A program made the position numbers and the translations under genes. DNA of 64,000 bases, from the NCBI GenBank assembly GCA_902524895.1, contig CABZFH010000002.1, positions 74,505-138,504 on the forward strand, given 5' to 3'. This DNA comes from an uncultured Alphaproteobacteria bacterium (GTDB lineage: Bacteria; Pseudomonadota; Alphaproteobacteria; Methylaequorales; Methylaequoraceae). This document shows positions 16,956 to 41,551 of this stretch, one piece after another (the stretch's first letter is position 1; each line of letters starts with the position of its first letter). A model generated the notes under the pieces. The model ran no database searches and had not been told where the DNA came from. It was given only the letters and a program-made list of their open reading frames with translations.

Positions 16956-17882
16956 ATGAAAAAAAAAATATATATTTTCACATTTTACAAGTTTATCACT
17001 ATTTCAGATAAGTCTACTTTACAAAGAAAAATATTAGACTTAATGAAAACTAATTCTATTTTTGGAACCATTCTAATTGCTAATGAAGGAATAAATGGAA
17101 CAGTTTCAAGTCATTTAGAAAATTTAAAAAAACTTAAAGTACTGATACTAAATAAAGTATCTATTGATATACGTTTTAAAAAATACTCTTGTTCAAATTA
17201 TCCTTTCATAAGGCAAAAAGTCAAAATTAAAAATGAAATTGTAAAAATGGGTGTAAATAATATAGATGTTCAAAAATTTACTGCCCAATTTCTTGAACCT
17301 AAGGAGTGGGAAAAGTTTTTGAAAAAAAAAGATACTGTTGTTGTAGACACACGAAACACATATGAATCAGAAATTGGAAATTTTAAAAACTCTATTTCTC
17401 CAAATACCTTATCCTTTAGTGAATTTCCAAAATGGATAGAAAAAAATAAAAAGAACTTTGAAAATAAAGTTGTTGCTATGTATTGCACGGGAGGTATTCG
17501 CTGTGAAAAAGCCTCATCTTACATGATAGAACAGGGTTTCAAAAATATTTATCAGCTTAAGGGGGGTATTCTAAACTATTTGAGAAAAACAGAAAAGAAA
17601 GATAGTTTATGGAATGGAGAGTGTTTTGTTTTTGATGATAGAGTGTCGGTAAATCATTCATTAAAAAAGGGAAAATTTATACAATGTTTTGCTTGTAAAT
17701 CTGCATTGACGAAAGAAGACACTCTTTCAAAATATTATAGAAAAGGAATTTCGTGTAAAAAATGTTTTAAAAAAACAACGCAGAAACAAAAAGAGGGTTT
17801 TAGGGAACGTGTAAGACAGATAAGCATAGCGAAAAAAAGAAGAATTTCACATTTAGGGAAAAAAAATATCAATTCTCAGTAA
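16956..17882 (+). CDS. trhO: Rhodanese-domain tRNA U34 hydroxylase (UPF0176)
   Basis: GTILIANEGINGT, DTRNTYESEIG, MYCTGGIRCEKA, QLKGGILNYL, GECFVFDDRV. Confidence 0.92.
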   Translation: MKKKIYIFTFYKFITISDKSTLQRKILDLMKTNSIFGTILIANEGINGTVSSHLENLKKLKVLILNKVSIDIRFKKYSCSNYPFIRQKVKIKNEIVKMGVNNIDVQKFTAQFLEPKEWEKFLKKKDTVVVDTRNTYESEIGNFKNSISPNTLSFSEFPKWIEKNKKNFENKVVAMYCTGGIRCEKASSYMIEQGFKNIYQLKGGILNYLRKTEKKDSLWNGECFVFDDRVSVNHSLKKGKFIQCFACKSALTKEDTLSKYYRKGISCKKCFKKTTQKQKEGFRERVRQISIAKKRRISHLGKKNINSQ

Positions 17883-18948
17883 CTTTTTGAATGGATAATT
17901 TTTTCATTTTTTCAATTAATGTAGTTCTGTTTATCTTTAAACATTCTGATGCTTTAGTCACAGATCCTTTGTTTTTTTCCAAAGCTGATTCTATTAATGT
18001 TATTTCAACCTCACTCAAGTATCTTCTTAAGTCGATCTTATCCATATACTCAAACCATTTTTTATAGTGACTAGGATGGGGTAATATGTGATCTGCAGTT
18101 TCTTGAGTATCATTTTTATTTAACTTTACTAAATCGGACGTTAAATTCCATAACTCTTCTTTTTCCTCCTCATCTTGAGGTAGGCTAATTCTTATTAAAT
18201 TATCTTTAATATTTTGTGAATCAATTAGTTTATTGGGAAATAAAATTGATGCTCTTTCTATCACATTCTTTAATTCTCTAACATTTCCTGGCCAAATATA
18301 TTCTTTTAATGCTCTAAGAGCAGAATTATCAAACTTGGGTATTTGAGCTCCATAGCTTTTCAATTCTTCAATCATATGTTCAACTAGAATAGGAATATCA
18401 TCATTTCTTTCTGCAAGAGTAGGTATCTCAATGGGAAAAACATTAATTCTATAAAACAAATCTGCTCTAAAACTTCCCTCCTCAATTTTTTGTTCTATAT
18501 TTTGATGGGTTGCGCAAACTAGACGTAAATCTAAGTTAATTTCTTTTTTTCCACCTACCCTTTGTATTTTTTTTGTTTCTATAGCTCTTAATAGTTTGGC
18601 TTGAAGAGTCATTGGCATATCGCCAATCTCGTCTAAAAATAATGTACCAAAATCAGAGAGTTCAAACCTCCCTTGTCTTTGAGAATCTGCACCAGTAAAA
18701 GCACCCTTTTCATGACCAAAAAGTTCGGATTCCAAAAGTTCAGACGGAATTGCAGCACAATTTACATTTACAAGTTGCCCTTTTCTTTTGGAACTGTAAT
18801 GGATTGCACGTGCTACAACGTCTTTTCCACAACCAGTTTCCCCTCTTAATAAAACTGTTGATGGTGACAAAGAAACCATTGAGACTAACTTTTTTAATTG
18901 TTTAGTTGCCTCACAATCTCCTTTTATAATATCTTCAATTTTATCCAT
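17869..18948 (-). CDS. fleQ: Sigma54 enhancer-binding protein, FleQ/FlrA-like, lacking an N-terminal sensory domain
   Basis: GETGCGKD, ESELFGHEKGAFTGA, LFLDEIGD, WPGNVREL; FleQ-type HTH (DLRRYLSEVE...INRTTLIEKMKK). ATG at 18948. Confidence 0.85.
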   Translation of the reverse strand: MDKIEDIIKGDCEATKQLKKLVSMVSLSPSTVLLRGETGCGKDVVARAIHYSSKRKGQLVNVNCAAIPSELLESELFGHEKGAFTGADSQRQGRFELSDFGTLFLDEIGDMPMTLQAKLLRAIETKKIQRVGGKKEINLDLRLVCATHQNIEQKIEEGSFRADLFYRINVFPIEIPTLAERNDDIPILVEHMIEELKSYGAQIPKFDNSALRALKEYIWPGNVRELKNVIERASILFPNKLIDSQNIKDNLIRISLPQDEEEKEELWNLTSDLVKLNKNDTQETADHILPHPSHYKKWFEYMDKIDLRRYLSEVEITLIESALEKNKGSVTKASECLKINRTTLIEKMKKLSIQKVTEN

Positions 18949-18984
18949 ACGTAGTGTCAAAAATTTGCTATATTCAGCTATTAA

Positions 18985-19006
18985 TATTGTCAGAATCCTG
19001 ACAATA
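18985..19006. promoter_or_regulatory. FleQ-type enhancer box (GTCA-N6-TGAC inside a perfect 9-bp inverted repeat)
   Basis: TATTGTCAG-AATC-CTGACAATA, about 80 bp upstream of the fleT sigma54 motif. Confidence 0.75.
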
Positions 19007-19033
19007 AGCAAATTTTAAAAAAAAATTTTACTC

Positions 19034-19136: not shown

Positions 19137-20285
19137 ATGAAGGACATAATAATAATTGAAGAATCTTTCCAGAATGCAAAAAATTTAAATGATTTTTTAT
19201 GCAATAGAAAGATTAATAGTCAACTCCAAAAAATAAATGATTTAAAAAAAATCAACTTTCCAAAGTCTGTTTTAATAGGTTCTGAAGGATTAGAAACAAT
19301 GGTTGGTGGAAAAAATAATCTATTTAAACTTTCAAGATCTATAGGTAGTACTAAAATTATAATTCTGAAATCTAAATCTCGAGAGTATAAAATTGAATCG
19401 GAATTGGGTGGAGCCTATAGTAAATATTATTTCCCTAATTTTGATGAATCGATTTATGAATTGTTAATAAATAAAATCTCAGATCAAAAATTTTCATTCG
19501 CTGATCCTAAAACTCATCAATTAATTTATCTAGCAAAAAAAGTTGCTGAAACTGATGTAACTGTTTTTATTCATGGCCCTACAGGAACAGGTAAAGAAGT
19601 TGTATCAAGTTTTATTCATAAAGAATCTAAAAGAAATGAAAAACCCTTCGTTGCTGTAAATTGTGCGGCAATACCTGAGAATATGCTTGAAGCTATGCTT
19701 TTTGGACATGAAAAAGGAGCTTTTACTGGAGCCTCAACTGCTAATAAAGGTATTTTTCGTGCAGCAGATTCAGGAACTCTTCTACTTGATGAAATTTCTG
19801 AAATGCCTTTATCTCTGCAAGCTAAATTGTTGAGGGTTTTACAAGAAAAGAAAGTAACACCAATTGGTAGTCATAGGGATATTTCAGTTGACGTAAGAGT
19901 TATTGCAACAACAAATAGAGATATGGTTAATGAAGTTAAAGAAAAAAAATTTAGAGAAGATCTTTTTTACAGACTGAATGTATTCCCCATTGAGACAACC
20001 AACTTATTTGAAAGACCTGGTGATATAATTCCAATTAGTATTACACTTTTAAAAAGACATGTCGAAAATGGTCAGCAAATACCTTTTCTGACGAAAGAAA
20101 CTCAGGATCTAATAAGAAATTATACTTGGCCAGGAAATGTTAGAGAATTAGAAAATGTTCTTCAGAGAGCATTAGTCCTATCGAATAAAAAGGTTATAAA
20201 TAAAAATGATATTATGATAGACGATATGCTTTACAAAAGTAACACTGAATCAAATAAATTATATAAACAAGCAGCACAAGGATAA
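19137..20285 (+). CDS. fleT: Sigma54 activator without a C-terminal HTH, FleT-like
   Basis: HGPTGTGKE, GHEKGAFTGA, LLDEISE, WPGNVRELEN; ends soon after the AAA+ domain; first gene of the fliE operon. Confidence 0.75.
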   Translation: MKDIIIIEESFQNAKNLNDFLCNRKINSQLQKINDLKKINFPKSVLIGSEGLETMVGGKNNLFKLSRSIGSTKIIILKSKSREYKIESELGGAYSKYYFPNFDESIYELLINKISDQKFSFADPKTHQLIYLAKKVAETDVTVFIHGPTGTGKEVVSSFIHKESKRNEKPFVAVNCAAIPENMLEAMLFGHEKGAFTGASTANKGIFRAADSGTLLLDEISEMPLSLQAKLLRVLQEKKVTPIGSHRDISVDVRVIATTNRDMVNEVKEKKFREDLFYRLNVFPIETTNLFERPGDIIPISITLLKRHVENGQQIPFLTKETQDLIRNYTWPGNVRELENVLQRALVLSNKKVINKNDIMIDDMLYKSNTESNKLYKQAAQG

Positions 20286-26386: not shown

Positions 26387-26402
26387 TGGCATTGGATTTG
26401 CA
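26387..26402 (+). promoter_or_regulatory. Sigma54 promoter of fliKLMN
   Basis: TGGCATTGGATTTGCA (GG-N10-GC). Confidence 0.8.
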
Positions 26403-26414
26403 GATTTAAGCTAA

Positions 26415-27746
26415 ATGGTAACAGTTAATAAAAATAATATCTTAAATTCAGAGAATATTACTCTAAAAAAAAATAAAGTTTTCAGAGAAAACTTAGATGG
26501 TGTTTTTGCTGAATTATTTAGCCTGGTTAATATGAATGATATCGAGAATGGCGATATAACAAAAAAGAATTTATTAGATTCAAGTTTAAAAAATAAAGAG
26601 TTTATTGAATTTGAAAAAAATAATTTTTCAAGCTCTGAAAATTCTGAAGAAAATATTTTAGCAACAGCTAGATCGTTGGTATCAGTTTTTTATAAAGAAT
26701 TAAATCTTGATAATCCCAATGAAGGGTTAAAAGAAAATAAATATATTAATCCGGCAAAGGTTCGATTTGAAAACCAAAAAAATTCCAATGATCAAAAATT
26801 AGTTAATAAAGTTGAAACAAAGGAATCAGAACTAAAAGTTCCAAACTCTGAGTTAAAAAAAGATGAGAACCTTTTAGTAAATAAAAAAATTTCACTAACC
26901 CCATCTATTATAAAAAAAGTTTCTGAAAAAAATCAAAAAAATTTTCAGAGTATTAATAACAATTTCAATGAAAATGAAAATCAGTTAAAAAAGGCTTCTA
27001 CTCAACAAATCTTTAATGATGATGAAAAATTAATTGGTAATAGAGAAACATTAGCAAAAAAAGTTAAAAACAAAATATCAAAAAAAAAAATTAATAAAAA
27101 TAAAATTAATAGTGACAGCTACAAAATTGATGTAAAGTTTGAAAATAAAGAAATAAAATCTTCAAAAGATTTTACTATGAATTTCCAAAATACGTTTCAG
27201 CAATATAAAGATCAAAAAAACCAGATCAACCTGATTGAAAGATCAAACACTAATAAAAATCATAATTCCAAAACATTAGTTAATAATCTCGAGAATCAAA
27301 AAGATCTAGCTAATAAAGATGAAATTTTAGATTTGATGGAAAGTGCATGGGGTGAAAAGTTTGTTAAGATTGTTAAAAGTAAAATATCTCGAGGAGCCAA
27401 TAGAATTAATTTATCTTTAGAACCAAAAAATCTTGGAAAATTGAAGGTTGAGGTTGAAATAACAGGAAAAGAAACTGAGCTTAAAATTTTAAGTGATAAT
27501 AAACAAACAATAACAATTTTAAATGAAAATTCACAAAGATTAAATGAAATGTTTAAGGAGGATAATCTTAAATTGTCAAACTTTTCCACTATGTTTAATC
27601 AAAATAACGATAACTCAAAAAATCGAAATTCTGAAAAAAAGGCTGATAATTTCAATAAAAAAATTGAAGACAAAGTACAAATACATAAAAATAATAAAAT
27701 TATTAATACCAAAAAATCTAATCATAAAGTTGATAAAATTGCGTAA
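26415..27746 (+). CDS. fliK: Hook-length control protein FliK
   Basis: Low-complexity N-terminus; C-terminal domain with LSLEPKNLGKLKVEV; upstream of fliL. Confidence 0.85.
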   Translation: MVTVNKNNILNSENITLKKNKVFRENLDGVFAELFSLVNMNDIENGDITKKNLLDSSLKNKEFIEFEKNNFSSSENSEENILATARSLVSVFYKELNLDNPNEGLKENKYINPAKVRFENQKNSNDQKLVNKVETKESELKVPNSELKKDENLLVNKKISLTPSIIKKVSEKNQKNFQSINNNFNENENQLKKASTQQIFNDDEKLIGNRETLAKKVKNKISKKKINKNKINSDSYKIDVKFENKEIKSSKDFTMNFQNTFQQYKDQKNQINLIERSNTNKNHNSKTLVNNLENQKDLANKDEILDLMESAWGEKFVKIVKSKISRGANRINLSLEPKNLGKLKVEVEITGKETELKILSDNKQTITILNENSQRLNEMFKEDNLKLSNFSTMFNQNNDNSKNRNSEKKADNFNKKIEDKVQIHKNNKIINTKKSNHKVDKIA

Positions 27747-29801: not shown

Positions 29802-29815
29802 GTCAAATACTTGAC
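29802..29815. promoter_or_regulatory. FleQ-type enhancer box upstream of fliO
   Basis: GTCA-AATACT-TGAC, about 76 bp upstream of the fliO sigma54 motif. Confidence 0.7.
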
Positions 29816-36548: not shown

Positions 36549-37727
36549 TTAATAATTTATTTCAATTTCTATTCTTCTGTTTTTTTCTCTACCTTCTGAA
36601 GTGTCATTTGAACCTAATGGTTGCGTTTCACCATAGCTAATTGCCTTCATTCTTTTTGGTTGAAGTTTACCTGTAGATGATAATTCCTGAACAACAGATG
36701 AAGATCTAGCCGCTGCTAAATCCCAGTTATCTCTATATATTGATCCAAATATTAATGGTGTATCATCAGTATGACCTGACACTAAAATTTCACTTTTACC
36801 TTTTTTATTGAGGTCGGCAATTTTTGCCATAATTTTCTTAGCTTTAGATGTTAATTCGGCAGAGCCAGATTTAAACGCACCACCTGAACCCACTGTTATG
36901 ATTACTTTATCTTCATCTCTGTCAACATTAATCAAGCCTTCTCCAATTTCTTTTCTAAGAGCTATTTTAAATTTATCTTCTGCTATTTGAGCTTTTTTTT
37001 CTTCTTCTTTAGAAATGTCTGGAGATTCTCCAATATTGTTTCCATCTGAAGATTCAGATTCTAGCTTTCCTTTACTGGCTGCAGCTGTCGCTAATTGAGC
37101 AAGTTTCTGTTCTAAGCCACCAAACAAAACTTCTGATTCTGATTTTCCAGACGCAGACTTTACTGTTTCTATTGAGTTAAGAGTTTCTTGCAGTAAATTT
37201 GGTAAATCTTTTTCCTCAGCTTCAAGCGGAGTGAAATTTACAATTACTTTATCTGCTAATACCTCAACCTCAATATCACCCCTAGCAATAGCATCTTTTA
37301 TATTTTGTGCTAATTCTGTGGCATCCTCGTTTTGTCCATCATCTTTGGTATTATCTTGAGTTTTAGTTTTAAGCTCAACATTCTTTTGATCAGTTTCAGT
37401 GGTCTGCTGTTTTAAGTTTTCTTGCACGGCCGGCGTTGGATTAGGACTAAAACTTAACGATAATAATGTTGTCCCTTTAGGTTGTTCAACAACTGGAATT
37501 ATCCTTTGAATACCAAATGCATTTTTCATGCTTCCACTAATTTGCTTGAATTTAGGAACATTAAATTCTGCGAAAGAAAGAATTAAGACGAAAAATGCCA
37601 TCAACAATGTTGCCATATCTGCAAAAGTTGCCATCCACGCAGGGGCACCTTTTGGAGGACATTCTGGGCATTCGTGTTCCTCTTCATCTTTAGTTTCTTT
37701 TTTTTTTTCTTCTTTTTCCTCAGCCAT
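36549..37727 (-). CDS. motB: Flagellar stator B subunit (PomB/MotB-like)
   Basis: WMATFADMATLLMAFFVLILSF TM with the conserved Asp; OmpA-like domain GHTD...NWDLAAARS...NRRIEI. Confidence 0.95.
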   Translation of the reverse strand: MAEEKEEKKKETKDEEEHECPECPPKGAPAWMATFADMATLLMAFFVLILSFAEFNVPKFKQISGSMKNAFGIQRIIPVVEQPKGTTLLSLSFSPNPTPAVQENLKQQTTETDQKNVELKTKTQDNTKDDGQNEDATELAQNIKDAIARGDIEVEVLADKVIVNFTPLEAEEKDLPNLLQETLNSIETVKSASGKSESEVLFGGLEQKLAQLATAAASKGKLESESSDGNNIGESPDISKEEEKKAQIAEDKFKIALRKEIGEGLINVDRDEDKVIITVGSGGAFKSGSAELTSKAKKIMAKIADLNKKGKSEILVSGHTDDTPLIFGSIYRDNWDLAAARSSSVVQELSSTGKLQPKRMKAISYGETQPLGSNDTSEGREKNRRIEIEINY

Positions 37728-37750: not shown

Positions 37751-38518
37751 TTATGCCGCAGCCTCTATTAGTTTTTGTTTTTCTTTTGGAGGAAGATTAG
37801 CAACAAGTTGATCTTGAATGTTTCTTCCACTTTCTCCTCGAGAAATTAACTGTAAGCCGGTAATTATCATTTCTCTATAAGTCACTTCATAAGTTGTGTA
37901 GCCTTTCATTTTCACAACAATTGGCATAAAAATAGTGTTTGCAATCATAGCTCCATATAGAGTGGTCAAAAGGGCAACGGCCATTGCAGGCCCAATAGCC
38001 TTTGGGTCAGCCATGTTACCTAACATTGCTACTAATCCAACTAAAGTTCCAATCATGCCCATTGCTGGCGCAATATCAACCCAAGCTTGAGCAACTCCAG
38101 TTGATTTTGCATGTCTACCTTGCATCGCTTTTAATTCTTTTTTTAATTGTATGGTTAATTTCTCTTCATCAGCACCATCTACAAGCATCTGCAAACCACT
38201 ATCAAAAAATGGATCTGGGGTTTCTTGACCTTCAAGAGCCATCATTCCATCTTTTCTGGCTATTCCAGCGAGCTCAACTATTCTGGTGATTAATTCGTCC
38301 ATTTTTTTAATAGGCGGTTTAAAGGCTTTAGCCATAGCCCCGAATGACCCTAAGAAAAGTGGTAATGGCGCAGTATACATTACAGCGAAAAATGTTCCAC
38401 CAAAAACAATTAAAATTGAAGGTATGTCAACGTACATACCTATTCCGCCTGCAGAAACCATTGCACCTGCGATCATACCTATAGTTCCTAAAAGTCCAAT
38501 GAGTGATGCTATATCCAT
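37751..38518 (-). CDS. motA: Flagellar stator A subunit, short PomA-like type
   Basis: ARKDGMMALE, APAMGMIGTLVGLV, IGPAMAVALLTTLYG; 255 aa. Confidence 0.96.
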   Translation of the reverse strand: MDIASLIGLLGTIGMIAGAMVSAGGIGMYVDIPSILIVFGGTFFAVMYTAPLPLFLGSFGAMAKAFKPPIKKMDELITRIVELAGIARKDGMMALEGQETPDPFFDSGLQMLVDGADEEKLTIQLKKELKAMQGRHAKSTGVAQAWVDIAPAMGMIGTLVGLVAMLGNMADPKAIGPAMAVALLTTLYGAMIANTIFMPIVVKMKGYTTYEVTYREMIITGLQLISRGESGRNIQDQLVANLPPKEKQKLIEAAA

Positions 38519-38569
38519 AATTTATTTTCCATTAATTATTTTTAATTTATATATATATTTATAATATCT

Positions 38570-38585
38570 TGGTATAAAAACTGCA
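38570..38585 (+). promoter_or_regulatory. Sigma54 promoter facing the DUF1566 gene
   Basis: TGGTATAAAAACTGCA (GG-N10-GC); shares its -12 GC with the motA promoter. Confidence 0.55.
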
Positions 38586-38597
38586 ACTTTGATACCA
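38582..38597 (-). promoter_or_regulatory. Sigma54 promoter of motAB
   Basis: Minus strand TGGTATCAAAGTTGCA (GG-N10-GC). Confidence 0.75.
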
Positions 38598-38655
38598 AAG
38601 TAGTAAAAATTTATTATTTAGTAATTCAAATATATTTATCGTATTATTAAATTCT

Positions 38656-39165
38656 ATGAAAAAAAAACAAAATCATATCATTAATAAAATTAAAATACTT
38701 TGTATTTTTTCTATTATTACAACACTCAATTTTTTGTTTAGTCATAATCTTAAAGCCAGAGATTACATTGATAAGGGACATATTGTTATTGATCTAAAAA
38801 ATAAAGTTGAATGGCTTAAATGTTCAGTAGGACAAGTTTGGGATACTGAAAAATGTACTGGTGATTCAATAAAAGTTTCCTTAAAAGAAGCTGAAGATTT
38901 GTTACCACAAGTAAATCAAGAACTTGGAGGTGAATGGAGACTACCTAATAAAAAAGAATTAGTAAGTATTATTTGTAAAATATGTTCCGGTGCGAAAATA
39001 AATGAAACTTATTTTCCTAACTCTCAAGCTGATATTTATTGGACATCACAAAGAAATTGGTGGTCTCCTCAATTTTTCTGGTCAGTTAATTTTATGACTG
39101 GTCATGCTTATGGTAGATTCGTTCCAGAAAAAAAATTATTCGTCAGATTTCTCAGAGACAGATGA
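38656..39165 (+). CDS. DUF1566 (Lcl C-terminal domain) exported protein
   Basis: DLKNKVEWLKCSVGQVW...WRLPNKKELVSII...FP...YWTS...WSVNF...G...VR. Confidence 0.85.
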   Translation: MKKKQNHIINKIKILCIFSIITTLNFLFSHNLKARDYIDKGHIVIDLKNKVEWLKCSVGQVWDTEKCTGDSIKVSLKEAEDLLPQVNQELGGEWRLPNKKELVSIICKICSGAKINETYFPNSQADIYWTSQRNWWSPQFFWSVNFMTGHAYGRFVPEKKLFVRFLRDR

Positions 39166-40008: not shown

Positions 40009-40022
40009 GTCATTTTTTTGAC
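40009..40022. promoter_or_regulatory. FleQ-type box upstream of rpoN, overlapping a possible sigma70 -35
   Basis: GTCA-TTTTTT-TGAC; TTGACG at 40018-40023 then TAGTTT after 18 bp. Confidence 0.55.
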
Positions 40023-40099: not shown

Positions 40100-41551
40100 A
40101 TGCAGATTTCACAAAATCTTAAACTAAAGCAAAGTCAATCGTTAGTTATGACACCTCAATTGCAACAAGCGATAAAATTACTACAATTGAATAATGTAGA
40201 ACTTTGTGAGTTAGTAGAAAAAGAATTAGAAGAAAATCCATTTTTAGAAAAAGATAACGAAACTGATCTTATCGAACAAAGAAATAACGAATATACTGAA
40301 AATGTTGATGAGGCATTTCAAAATGGTGAGTCACAATATGAAGATCCATCAAAAGGAGATTATGAGAACAGATGGGATCAAGATAACAATCTTTCTTCTA
40401 AATCCAATAACTTTGATACTATCGACCCAGGTTCAATTGCTGAACAAACTATCTCAGAGAAAGTTACTCTTAAATCCGTTTTGATGGAACAAGCAAATAT
40501 TGCATTCAAGACATCAAAAGAAAAAATAGTCTCTGAACTCTTGATAGATTACATTCAACCTTCAGGTTGGCTAACAACAGATTTAATTGAACTTCAGAAT
40601 ACTATAGGCTGTGATGAACAAACTTTAAATAATGTTTTATTTAAAATGCAAAATTTTGAACCAACGGGTGTATTTGCAAGGAACCTTACAGAGTGTTTAA
40701 GAATTCAATTGAAAAACAAAGATCTTTTGACAGATGGTATAAGTTTATTAATCGAAAACTTTGATTTATTAGCAAAAGGAGAAATTAAAAATCTCTGCAA
40801 AATTTGTAGTATGTCAGAGAATGAATTAACAAAAAGTATAAAAATAATAAAAACACTTAATCCTAAACCTGGTTCTTTATATTCAGAAGATAATGATCAA
40901 ATATTTCATCCTGACGTTATCGTTACCCAAAAAAACAATCAATGGGAGGTTGAGTTAAATAACGGAACGCTTCCAAAGATTATTGTTAATGAAAATTACA
41001 TAAAAGAATTAGAGAAATTAGGTGGAAATGATGCTGACAAAAAATTCATTTCTGAGTCAGTTAATTCTGCAAAGTGGTTAATGAAGGCAATTGAACAAAG
41101 AAATTTAACCACATTGAAAATTAGTTCGGAAATAGTTGAACAACAAAAATTATTTTTTGAAAAAGGTGTTTCTTACTTAAAACCCATGATTTTAAAAGAT
41201 GTAGCAAAGAAAATAAAAATGCACGAAAGTACTGTTAGTAGAGTTACAACTGGAAAATTAATGTTAACACCTAGGGGTATTTTTGAAATGAAGCATTTTT
41301 TTAGTGCCACCATCAATGGTACTATTGAAGGAGAAAGCCACTCAGCTGCTTCAGTGAGAGAAACTCTCAAAAATTTAATAAGTAATGAACCGCTTCATAA
41401 TCCCTTATCTGATGAGCTTTTAGTGTTAAAACTACAAAATGAAGGGATAAATCTAGCTAGAAGAACTGTTGCAAAATATAGAGAATTACTCAATATACCA
41501 TCATCATCCGAAAGAAGAAAAATGATGAAAATTCAAAGCATACATATTTAG
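40100..41551 (+). CDS. rpoN: RNA polymerase sigma-54 factor
   Basis: MTPQLQQAIKLLQL, ENPFLE, HESTVSRV, RpoN box ARRTVAKYRE. Confidence 0.98.
   Translation: MQISQNLKLKQSQSLVMTPQLQQAIKLLQLNNVELCELVEKELEENPFLEKDNETDLIEQRNNEYTENVDEAFQNGESQYEDPSKGDYENRWDQDNNLSSKSNNFDTIDPGSIAEQTISEKVTLKSVLMEQANIAFKTSKEKIVSELLIDYIQPSGWLTTDLIELQNTIGCDEQTLNNVLFKMQNFEPTGVFARNLTECLRIQLKNKDLLTDGISLLIENFDLLAKGEIKNLCKICSMSENELTKSIKIIKTLNPKPGSLYSEDNDQIFHPDVIVTQKNNQWEVELNNGTLPKIIVNENYIKELEKLGGNDADKKFISESVNSAKWLMKAIEQRNLTTLKISSEIVEQQKLFFEKGVSYLKPMILKDVAKKIKMHESTVSRVTTGKLMLTPRGIFEMKHFFSATINGTIEGESHSAASVRETLKNLISNEPLHNPLSDELLVLKLQNEGINLARRTVAKYRELLNIPSSSERRKMMKIQSIHI

Follow-up and report, generated by a model that had tools for sequence, protein, structure and literature searches.

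The intergenic region between motA and a diverging DUF1566 gene carries two sigma54 -24/-12 matches on opposite strands that have one and the same GC as their -12 element, and comparison with related genomes indicates, at a probability of roughly two in three, that this dyad is a compact bidirectional sigma54 promoter of which both orientations are used. The geometry, its conservation, its complementary distribution with separate promoters and a further locus of like design are computational results; firing in both directions, dependence on sigma54 and mutually exclusive occupancy are what we infer. The stretch analysed, hereafter the window, comprises 64,000 nucleotides (C2:74505-138504) of a genome of 1.43 Mb with 29% GC and 84.5% completeness, with relatives among marine metagenome-derived and single-cell genomes that bear the labels Rickettsiales or Alphaproteobacteria. 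The features concerned are collected in Table 1.

Table 1. Genes, promoter matches and related sites discussed in the text; positions are those of the window.
Feature	Position	Strand	Remarks
Dyad core, two sigma54 -24/-12 matches on opposite strands	38569..38598		GC 38583-38584 common to both; central palindrome TGCA
motAB-directed sigma54 promoter TGGTATCAAAGTTGCA	38582..38597	-	-24 GG pairs with plus-strand CC 38595-96; predicted start ~38571
DUF1566-directed sigma54 promoter match TGGTATAAAAACTGCA	38570..38585	+	GG 38571-72; predicted start ~38596
motA (MotA_ExbB)	37751..38518	-	domain match
motB (MotB_plug + OmpA)	36549..37727	-	domain match
DUF1566 gene	38656..39165	+	169-aa exported protein, Lcl_C (DUF1566) domain
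rpoN (sigma54)	40100..41551	+	AID, CBD and DBD complete; 1.5 kb from dyad
Enhancer-binding protein, FleQ-like	17869..19011	-	AAA+ sigma54-interaction domain, C-terminal HTH_8
Enhancer-binding protein, FleT-like	19137..20285	+	AAA+ sigma54-interaction domain, without HTH
Separate DUF1566-facing site AGGCATTAAAATTGCA			41 nt from motA core
Separate DUF1566-facing site TGGTCTAAAAGTTGCA			50-53 nt from motA core
Separate DUF1566-facing site CGGCACGTTTTATGCA			61 nt from motA core
Separate DUF1566-facing sites TGGCGCAATATATGCT, TGGCGTAAGATGTGCT			~100 nt from motA core
Separate DUF1566-facing site TGGCGCGAATCTTGCA			124 nt from motA core

Geometry of the dyad

The 30 nt at 38569-38598 read TTGGTATAAAAACTGCAACTTTGATACCAA. 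The central GC at 38583-84 is separated by exactly 10 nt from GG at 38571-72 on one side and from CC at 38595-96 on the other. Placed in the palindromic TGCA, this GC is the -12 of both matches, so that the two strands share a single core element. A perfect inverted repeat is formed by the arms TTGGTAT and ATACCAA (TTGGTAT-N16-ATACCAA), and around it a looser one extends with arms of up to 27 nt and 78% complementarity. The first-pass annotation had described overlapping opposite-strand sigma54 matches with a common -12 GC at this place, and the sequence, the spacing and the flanking genes all proved to be as it described them. The pattern TGG-N9-TGCA-N9-CCA had a single match in the 64-kb window and no match in 100 dinucleotide-preserving shuffles; genome-wide (1.43 Mb), four matches were found against ~0.64 expected from word frequencies. 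The geometry of the motA-DUF1566 dyad is thus exact and above chance expectation. Neither a structured RNA element nor a terminator accounts for the repeat, since an Rfam search of the dyad returned no family at E<=1, the hairpin (-7.6 kcal/mol, z = -1.4) was not significant as a fold, and a scan of the dyad for a terminator-like site, a stem followed by a T-run, found none.

Sigma54 and at least one enhancer-binding protein are encoded in the window, by rpoN and by the genes of two AAA+ activators. The motif TGG-N9-TGCW matched 27 times in the window against 8.5 expected. Genome-wide, we assigned 13 sigma54 promoters, all intergenic and correctly oriented, to flagellar and nitrogen genes; the set includes those of an ammonium transporter, PII, a DctM-like transporter, FlgF/G, FlhA, an FlgP-like lipoprotein, an FliK-like protein and flagellin.

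The motA-directed half

The leftward match TGGTATCAAAGTTGCA lies 79 nt ahead of the motA ATG, with GG and GC 10 nt apart in a TGG...TGC context. The block consisting of TTTGGTAT, then T or C, then AAAGTTGCA was invariant in 19/19 family genomes, in which MotA itself is only 79-98% identical. Farther afield, 78 of 80 loci carry TGGTMT-N5-TTGC at 52-78 nt ahead of motA; the loci represent SAR116, PS1, Rhodobiaceae-labelled and other marine Alphaproteobacteria. Judged by this conservation, the predicted motA-directed sigma54 promoter is secure.

The DUF1566-directed half

The rightward match TGGTATAAAAACTGCA stands 86 nt ahead of the DUF1566 ATG, again with GG and GC 10 nt apart in a TGG...TGC context, and the leader to the ATG at 38656 is 60 nt long, AT-rich and without an obvious Shine-Dalgarno sequence. 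This half-site reads CTGCA, not TTGCA. A weight matrix derived from the 13 independent sigma54 promoters gave it 13.5 bits versus 11.9 for the motA half; among 2.86 million positions, both halves rank within the top ~100.

The first-pass annotation had named conservation in relatives among its checks, and we found this second GG kept in 19 of 27 distinct family sequences, representing 8 of 11 genera. In the other eight it was lost (TTGCTAT, TTGTTAA, TCCGTAT, or replaced outright) while the DUF1566 gene was kept, and the plus-strand site is therefore dispensable in those lineages. Across the 27 distinct sequences, the 5-6 nt past the GC are ~50% conserved and the next positions, aTaccAaaaT, 70-90%; such a variable-then-conserved bipartite pattern would be that expected of a -24 element. 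A CC at the opposite -24 position occurred in 0/13 one-way sigma54 promoters and only in the two that have a diverging gene close by, which ruled out the CC as a general start-site preference of the sigma54 promoters of this organism. Of the two sigma54 promoters that had been proposed, the motA half stands (19/19 and 78/80), and the DUF1566-directed site is probably real, as judged by its score, by the GG kept in 19/27, by the separate sites of other lineages and by a second dyad at flgB; a pair of overlapping promoters with a common -12 GC is the reading with the best support.

The main competing explanation, which we regard as unlikely, is that only the motA promoter works; the plus-strand match would then be an inactive by-product or relic of the TGCA palindrome, and the DUF1566 promoter would lie elsewhere, for example as a sigma70-type promoter in the 70 nt before the ATG. 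The eight of 27 sequences that lack the reverse GG and retain the gene speak for it, as does a sigma70-like TTGATA-17-TATTAT on the plus strand at 38589-38617, but this match is within chance (one found versus 3.0 expected in shuffles), as such a scan says little in DNA so rich in AT, and shows no conservation in relatives. The CC, moreover, is kept in this 29% GC genome, in 8/11 genera and in SAR116, and two comparisons set out below also argue against it, namely the complementary distribution of the dyad and of separate DUF1566-facing sigma54 sites, and a dyad at flgB without space for any other promoter.

Transcription data bear on both readings. In favour of the bidirectional one, motA and the DUF1566 gene were both detected at similar contig depth in one metatranscriptome, in assembled contigs that carry neither strand nor 5' ends. 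Low-depth contigs (2-10x) span the 25-bp core uninterrupted in several metatranscriptomes (38314-38609 and 38559-38732), which fits a working motA promoter with a DUF1566 promoter elsewhere, and the flgB dyad is likewise spanned by low-depth metatranscriptome contigs (L111:1150-1553). Such core-crossing contigs are not predicted by a purely bidirectional promoter, which would need DNA carry-over or read-through to accommodate them; their cause could be either of these or an additional upstream start.

A second dyad at flgB

A second dyad of the same geometry was found outside the window, at C2:27456-27483 of this genome (L111:1451-1478; TTTGGCATTCAATTTGCAATTTCTAAACCAAA), between flgBCDE and a diverging gene for a 309-aa protein (C2:26509-27438). 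Its -12 is a perfect palindrome, TTGCAA, which gives the full TTGCA consensus both ways. The block cctttcttttGGCAtttaatttGCaaattccaaaCCaaaa showed little or no variation in 15/15 family genomes from 14 genera, with both flanks variable. Beyond the family, the dyad was found in 7/10 genomes from other marine alphaproteobacterial lineages, some of them GC-rich and with spacers that differ, as in TTGGCATCCTACTTGCAAATTCCGGACCAA; Puniceispirillaceae MAGs carry a dyad of this flgB type. The Shine-Dalgarno sequence and ATG of the diverging gene begin 17-27 nt from the forward TGG, so that the reverse sigma54 site occupies the only room for a promoter of this gene; the predicted start would give it a leader of 20-32 nt with a well-placed ribosome-binding site. 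The flgB dyad is, on these comparisons, the stronger case of the two. Because a second conserved dyad exists at flgB, the architecture with a shared core would be recurrent and old, not a one-off coincidence, and since the flgB dyad is found in larger genomes too, it looks ancestral.

The pattern TGG-N8-TTGCAA-N8-CCA was also present in 61 of 251 alphaproteobacterial genomes against ~19 for a reversed control; this class-wide excess was set aside as evidence, because ordinary sigma54 promoters with a chance CCA could produce an excess of this order. The 309-aa protein has a conserved N-terminus of ~70 aa with the motif P-E/D-V/I-x3-R-D-x-I and a long Lys/Glu-rich tail, and, though conserved across orders, it gave no match in Pfam, NCBIfam or PDB sequences.

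Distribution across lineages

In almost all of 94 scorable loci (family, SAR116, PS1 and others), the gene that diverges from motA is the DUF1566 gene, and in the SAR116 locus examined (L053) rpoN is near motA-DUF1566. Low-GC SAR116 genomes carry AGGCAC/T-N5-CTGCA toward the DUF1566 orthologue at the identical position, with TTGGTCT as the forward half. In lineages that have no dyad, separate sigma54-like sites face the DUF1566 gene at varied offsets from the motA core (Table 1). Altogether, a DUF1566-facing sigma54 site was present in 66 of the 94 loci versus 1 of 94 in the control orientation, many of the loci being closely related, so that the independent count is ~8 configurations and not 66. 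The dyad and a separate DUF1566-facing site never occurred together in one locus.

The motA/DUF1566 dyad belongs to small AT-rich genomes with intergenic regions of 90-140 nt, and larger, GC-richer relatives have 200-380 nt and separate promoters. This suggests, as far as genome comparison can tell, that the fusion of the two promoters accompanied genome streamlining. In three loci of related lineages (L099, L103 and L104), a sigma54-like candidate site, TTTGGCAT-N5-TTGT, faces DUF1566 ~60-75 nt upstream of the ATG; it has GT where the -12 GC would stand.

Proposed mechanism and alternatives

As a bidirectional promoter, the dyad would be bound either way round by RNA polymerase-sigma54, which would take one of the two GGs, 38571-72 on the left or CC 38595-96 on the right, as its -24 element and GC 38583-84 as the -12 in both cases. 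In one orientation motAB would be transcribed leftwards from ~38571, and in the other the DUF1566 gene rightwards from ~38596, the two predicted starts being ~25 bp apart. Transcription both ways would form part of the late, class III-like sigma54 regulon of the flagellum, and the window itself encodes the FleQ/FleT-type activators that would drive it. Since neither orientation can do without this GC and the footprints would overlap by >20 bp, we infer that one holoenzyme would occupy the dyad at a time, which is sound in view of the established binding of sigma54 at -24 and -12. The motAB and DUF1566 units would thus be induced together and compete for initiation events, and the ratio of their outputs would depend on the half-sites, TTGCA on the motA side and CTGCA on the DUF1566 side.

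The first-pass annotation had gone further and suggested a regulated either-or switch between the two genes. This found no support, since both directions appear to lie in the same flagellar sigma54 regulon, our search for an orientation-specific factor or site for the dyad returned none, and the plus-strand site has decayed in several relatives that retain the gene; rather than switched, the two genes are more probably co-regulated, with initiation split between them by competition.

It is also conceivable, but improbable in our view, that the plus-strand half-site binds the holoenzyme unproductively and acts as a decoy that throttles motAB, sigma54 closed complexes being stable. The common -12 would force competition by geometry alone, and for sigma54 sites that overlap another promoter a repressing or activating role has been suggested (PMC3844500; PMC4591121). 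Against a decoy, this site always faces a gene at a sensible distance, the DUF1566 gene has its own separate sigma54 promoter in other lineages, and the reverse site at flgB leads into a proper Shine-Dalgarno sequence and ATG.

Very improbable, finally, is that a dimeric transcription factor has TTGGTAT-N16-ATACCAA as its operator, overlapping the motA promoter. The perfect 7-nt arms and the looser 27-nt symmetry around them speak for it, but in SAR116 and at flgB symmetry is confined to the sigma54-critical GG, TGCA and CC (SAR116 arms TTGGTCT versus TTAGGCAC; flgB arms TTGGCAT versus TTGGTTT or TTGGTCC), and the nearest FleQ-box-like GTCA-N6-TGAC is 1.4 kb off. The window holds three such boxes, at 18989-19002, 29802-29815 and 40009-40022, against 0.33 expected. 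Their location away from the dyad is consistent with a class III-type promoter and with two promoter tiers.

Relation to known promoter arrangements

Divergent sigma54 pairs of the zraP-zraSR type stand back-to-back, with separate -24/-12 cores and activator sites in between. Like them, the dyad would serve two diverging operons, depend on sigma54 and, as we predict, be co-activated by one enhancer-binding protein. Unlike them, its cores interpenetrate and share the -12 dinucleotide with zero DNA between, so that it has neither separate cores nor an activator site between them, its nearest GTCA-N6-TGAC being the distant one mentioned above. Reports on zraP-zraSR and hyc-hyp of E. coli/Salmonella and on the VnfA1 targets of Azotobacter vinelandii describe these pairs as 'divergent' (PMC4987338, PMC9542535).

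The closest analogue of the dyad is the sigma70 bidirectional promoter, in which the -10 elements overlap and the starts are mostly 18 bp apart, and for which mutually exclusive polymerase binding is under study (Warman et al., bioRxiv 10.1101/2020.01.31.928960; NAR 2026, PMC12825309); neither paper mentions sigma54. The two have in common a pseudo-symmetric core read both ways, divergent starts at a fixed short distance and exclusive binding, the last two being predictions for the dyad. In contrast to the AT-rich -10 hexamer of the activator-free sigma70 type, the dyad shares a sigma54 -12 GC (TGCA or TTGCAA), its predicted starts are ~25 bp apart, and its firing would need an ATP-dependent enhancer-binding protein. 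At glmY, a sigma54 and a sigma70 promoter overlap, and both are reportedly read in the same direction. The dyad resembles glmY (PMC3045617) in having two promoter cores on the same DNA, for which they would compete, and differs from it in that it would use one sigma factor.

A review of Rhodobacter sphaeroides Fla1 describes motAB as class III sigma54 genes within a FleQ/FleT hierarchy (PMC7277832). As there, rpoN lies in the flagellar region, two activators are present, one with and one without an HTH, and motAB would be under sigma54; the lack of a FleQ box near the promoter likewise recalls class III of Fla1. In the passages of that review that we searched, neither overlapping opposite-strand promoters nor a DUF1566 partner is described. 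Genome-wide sigma54 maps of E. coli and Salmonella (PMC3844500; PMC4591121) make no mention of opposite-strand sites with a common -12, and a search of the open-access literature found no description of opposite-strand sigma54 promoters so arranged, an absence that is no proof. The initial impression that this geometry is undescribed for sigma54 agrees with that open-access search. The dyad would accordingly be the sigma54 form of a bidirectional promoter, a kind established for sigma70, with its function deduced from comparison alone.

Implications

Bidirectional promoters have lately been recognised as common for sigma70, where they are explained by the symmetry of the -10 element. Sigma54 forms a stable closed complex and fires only after remodelling by an AAA+ activator. 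A core that could be bound in either orientation by such a polymerase raises the questions of what sets the orientation, whether one activator serves both directions and whether competition couples the two operons. Given the long life of sigma54 closed complexes and their dependence on an activator for firing, a further step can be entertained, although we consider it doubtful: that sigma54 dyads with a shared palindromic -12 (TGCA/TTGCAA) are a conserved, selected architecture of flagellar regulons in marine Alphaproteobacteria (flgB; motAB-DUF1566), in which holoenzyme orientation is a regulated or tuned decision. If so, orientation would fix the stoichiometry of the diverging operons or make the two anticorrelated in single cells, and the dyad would stand as the first equivalent, among activator-dependent promoters, of the bidirectional type known from sigma70.

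The arrangement would also place the periplasmic DUF1566 protein and the gene beside flgB in the flagellar regulon, and the DUF1566 protein is a candidate for an accessory role in the periplasm at the stator or motor; no relative of it was found among PDB sequences, nor any link to motility in the open-access literature searched. As a piece of DNA, the dyad illustrates the compression of regulatory sequence in streamlined marine genomes, and, at ~30 bp, it could offer synthetic biology an activator-gated part with two outputs.

Other sigma54 promoters of the genome

An ordinary back-to-back sigma54 pair lies at C2:22465-22532, where flhA is read leftwards and the gene of an FlgP/LPP20-like lipoprotein rightwards; its two TGGs are 37 nt apart (22480/22517). 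With this pair and the dyads, the genome appears to use both separate and fused divergent designs. Several other predicted sigma54 promoters sit close to a start codon, namely that at 26387-26417 of the window and those at C6:91982, C2:16356 and C13:2961 of this genome (G000), which serve, among others, the PII gene, flgF/G, a DegT-type aminotransferase gene and a fliK-like gene. At these promoters the start codon is at, or 1-3 nt from, the predicted start, 12-14 nt past the -12 C, which implies that this streamlined genome would produce leaderless or nearly leaderless sigma54 transcripts.
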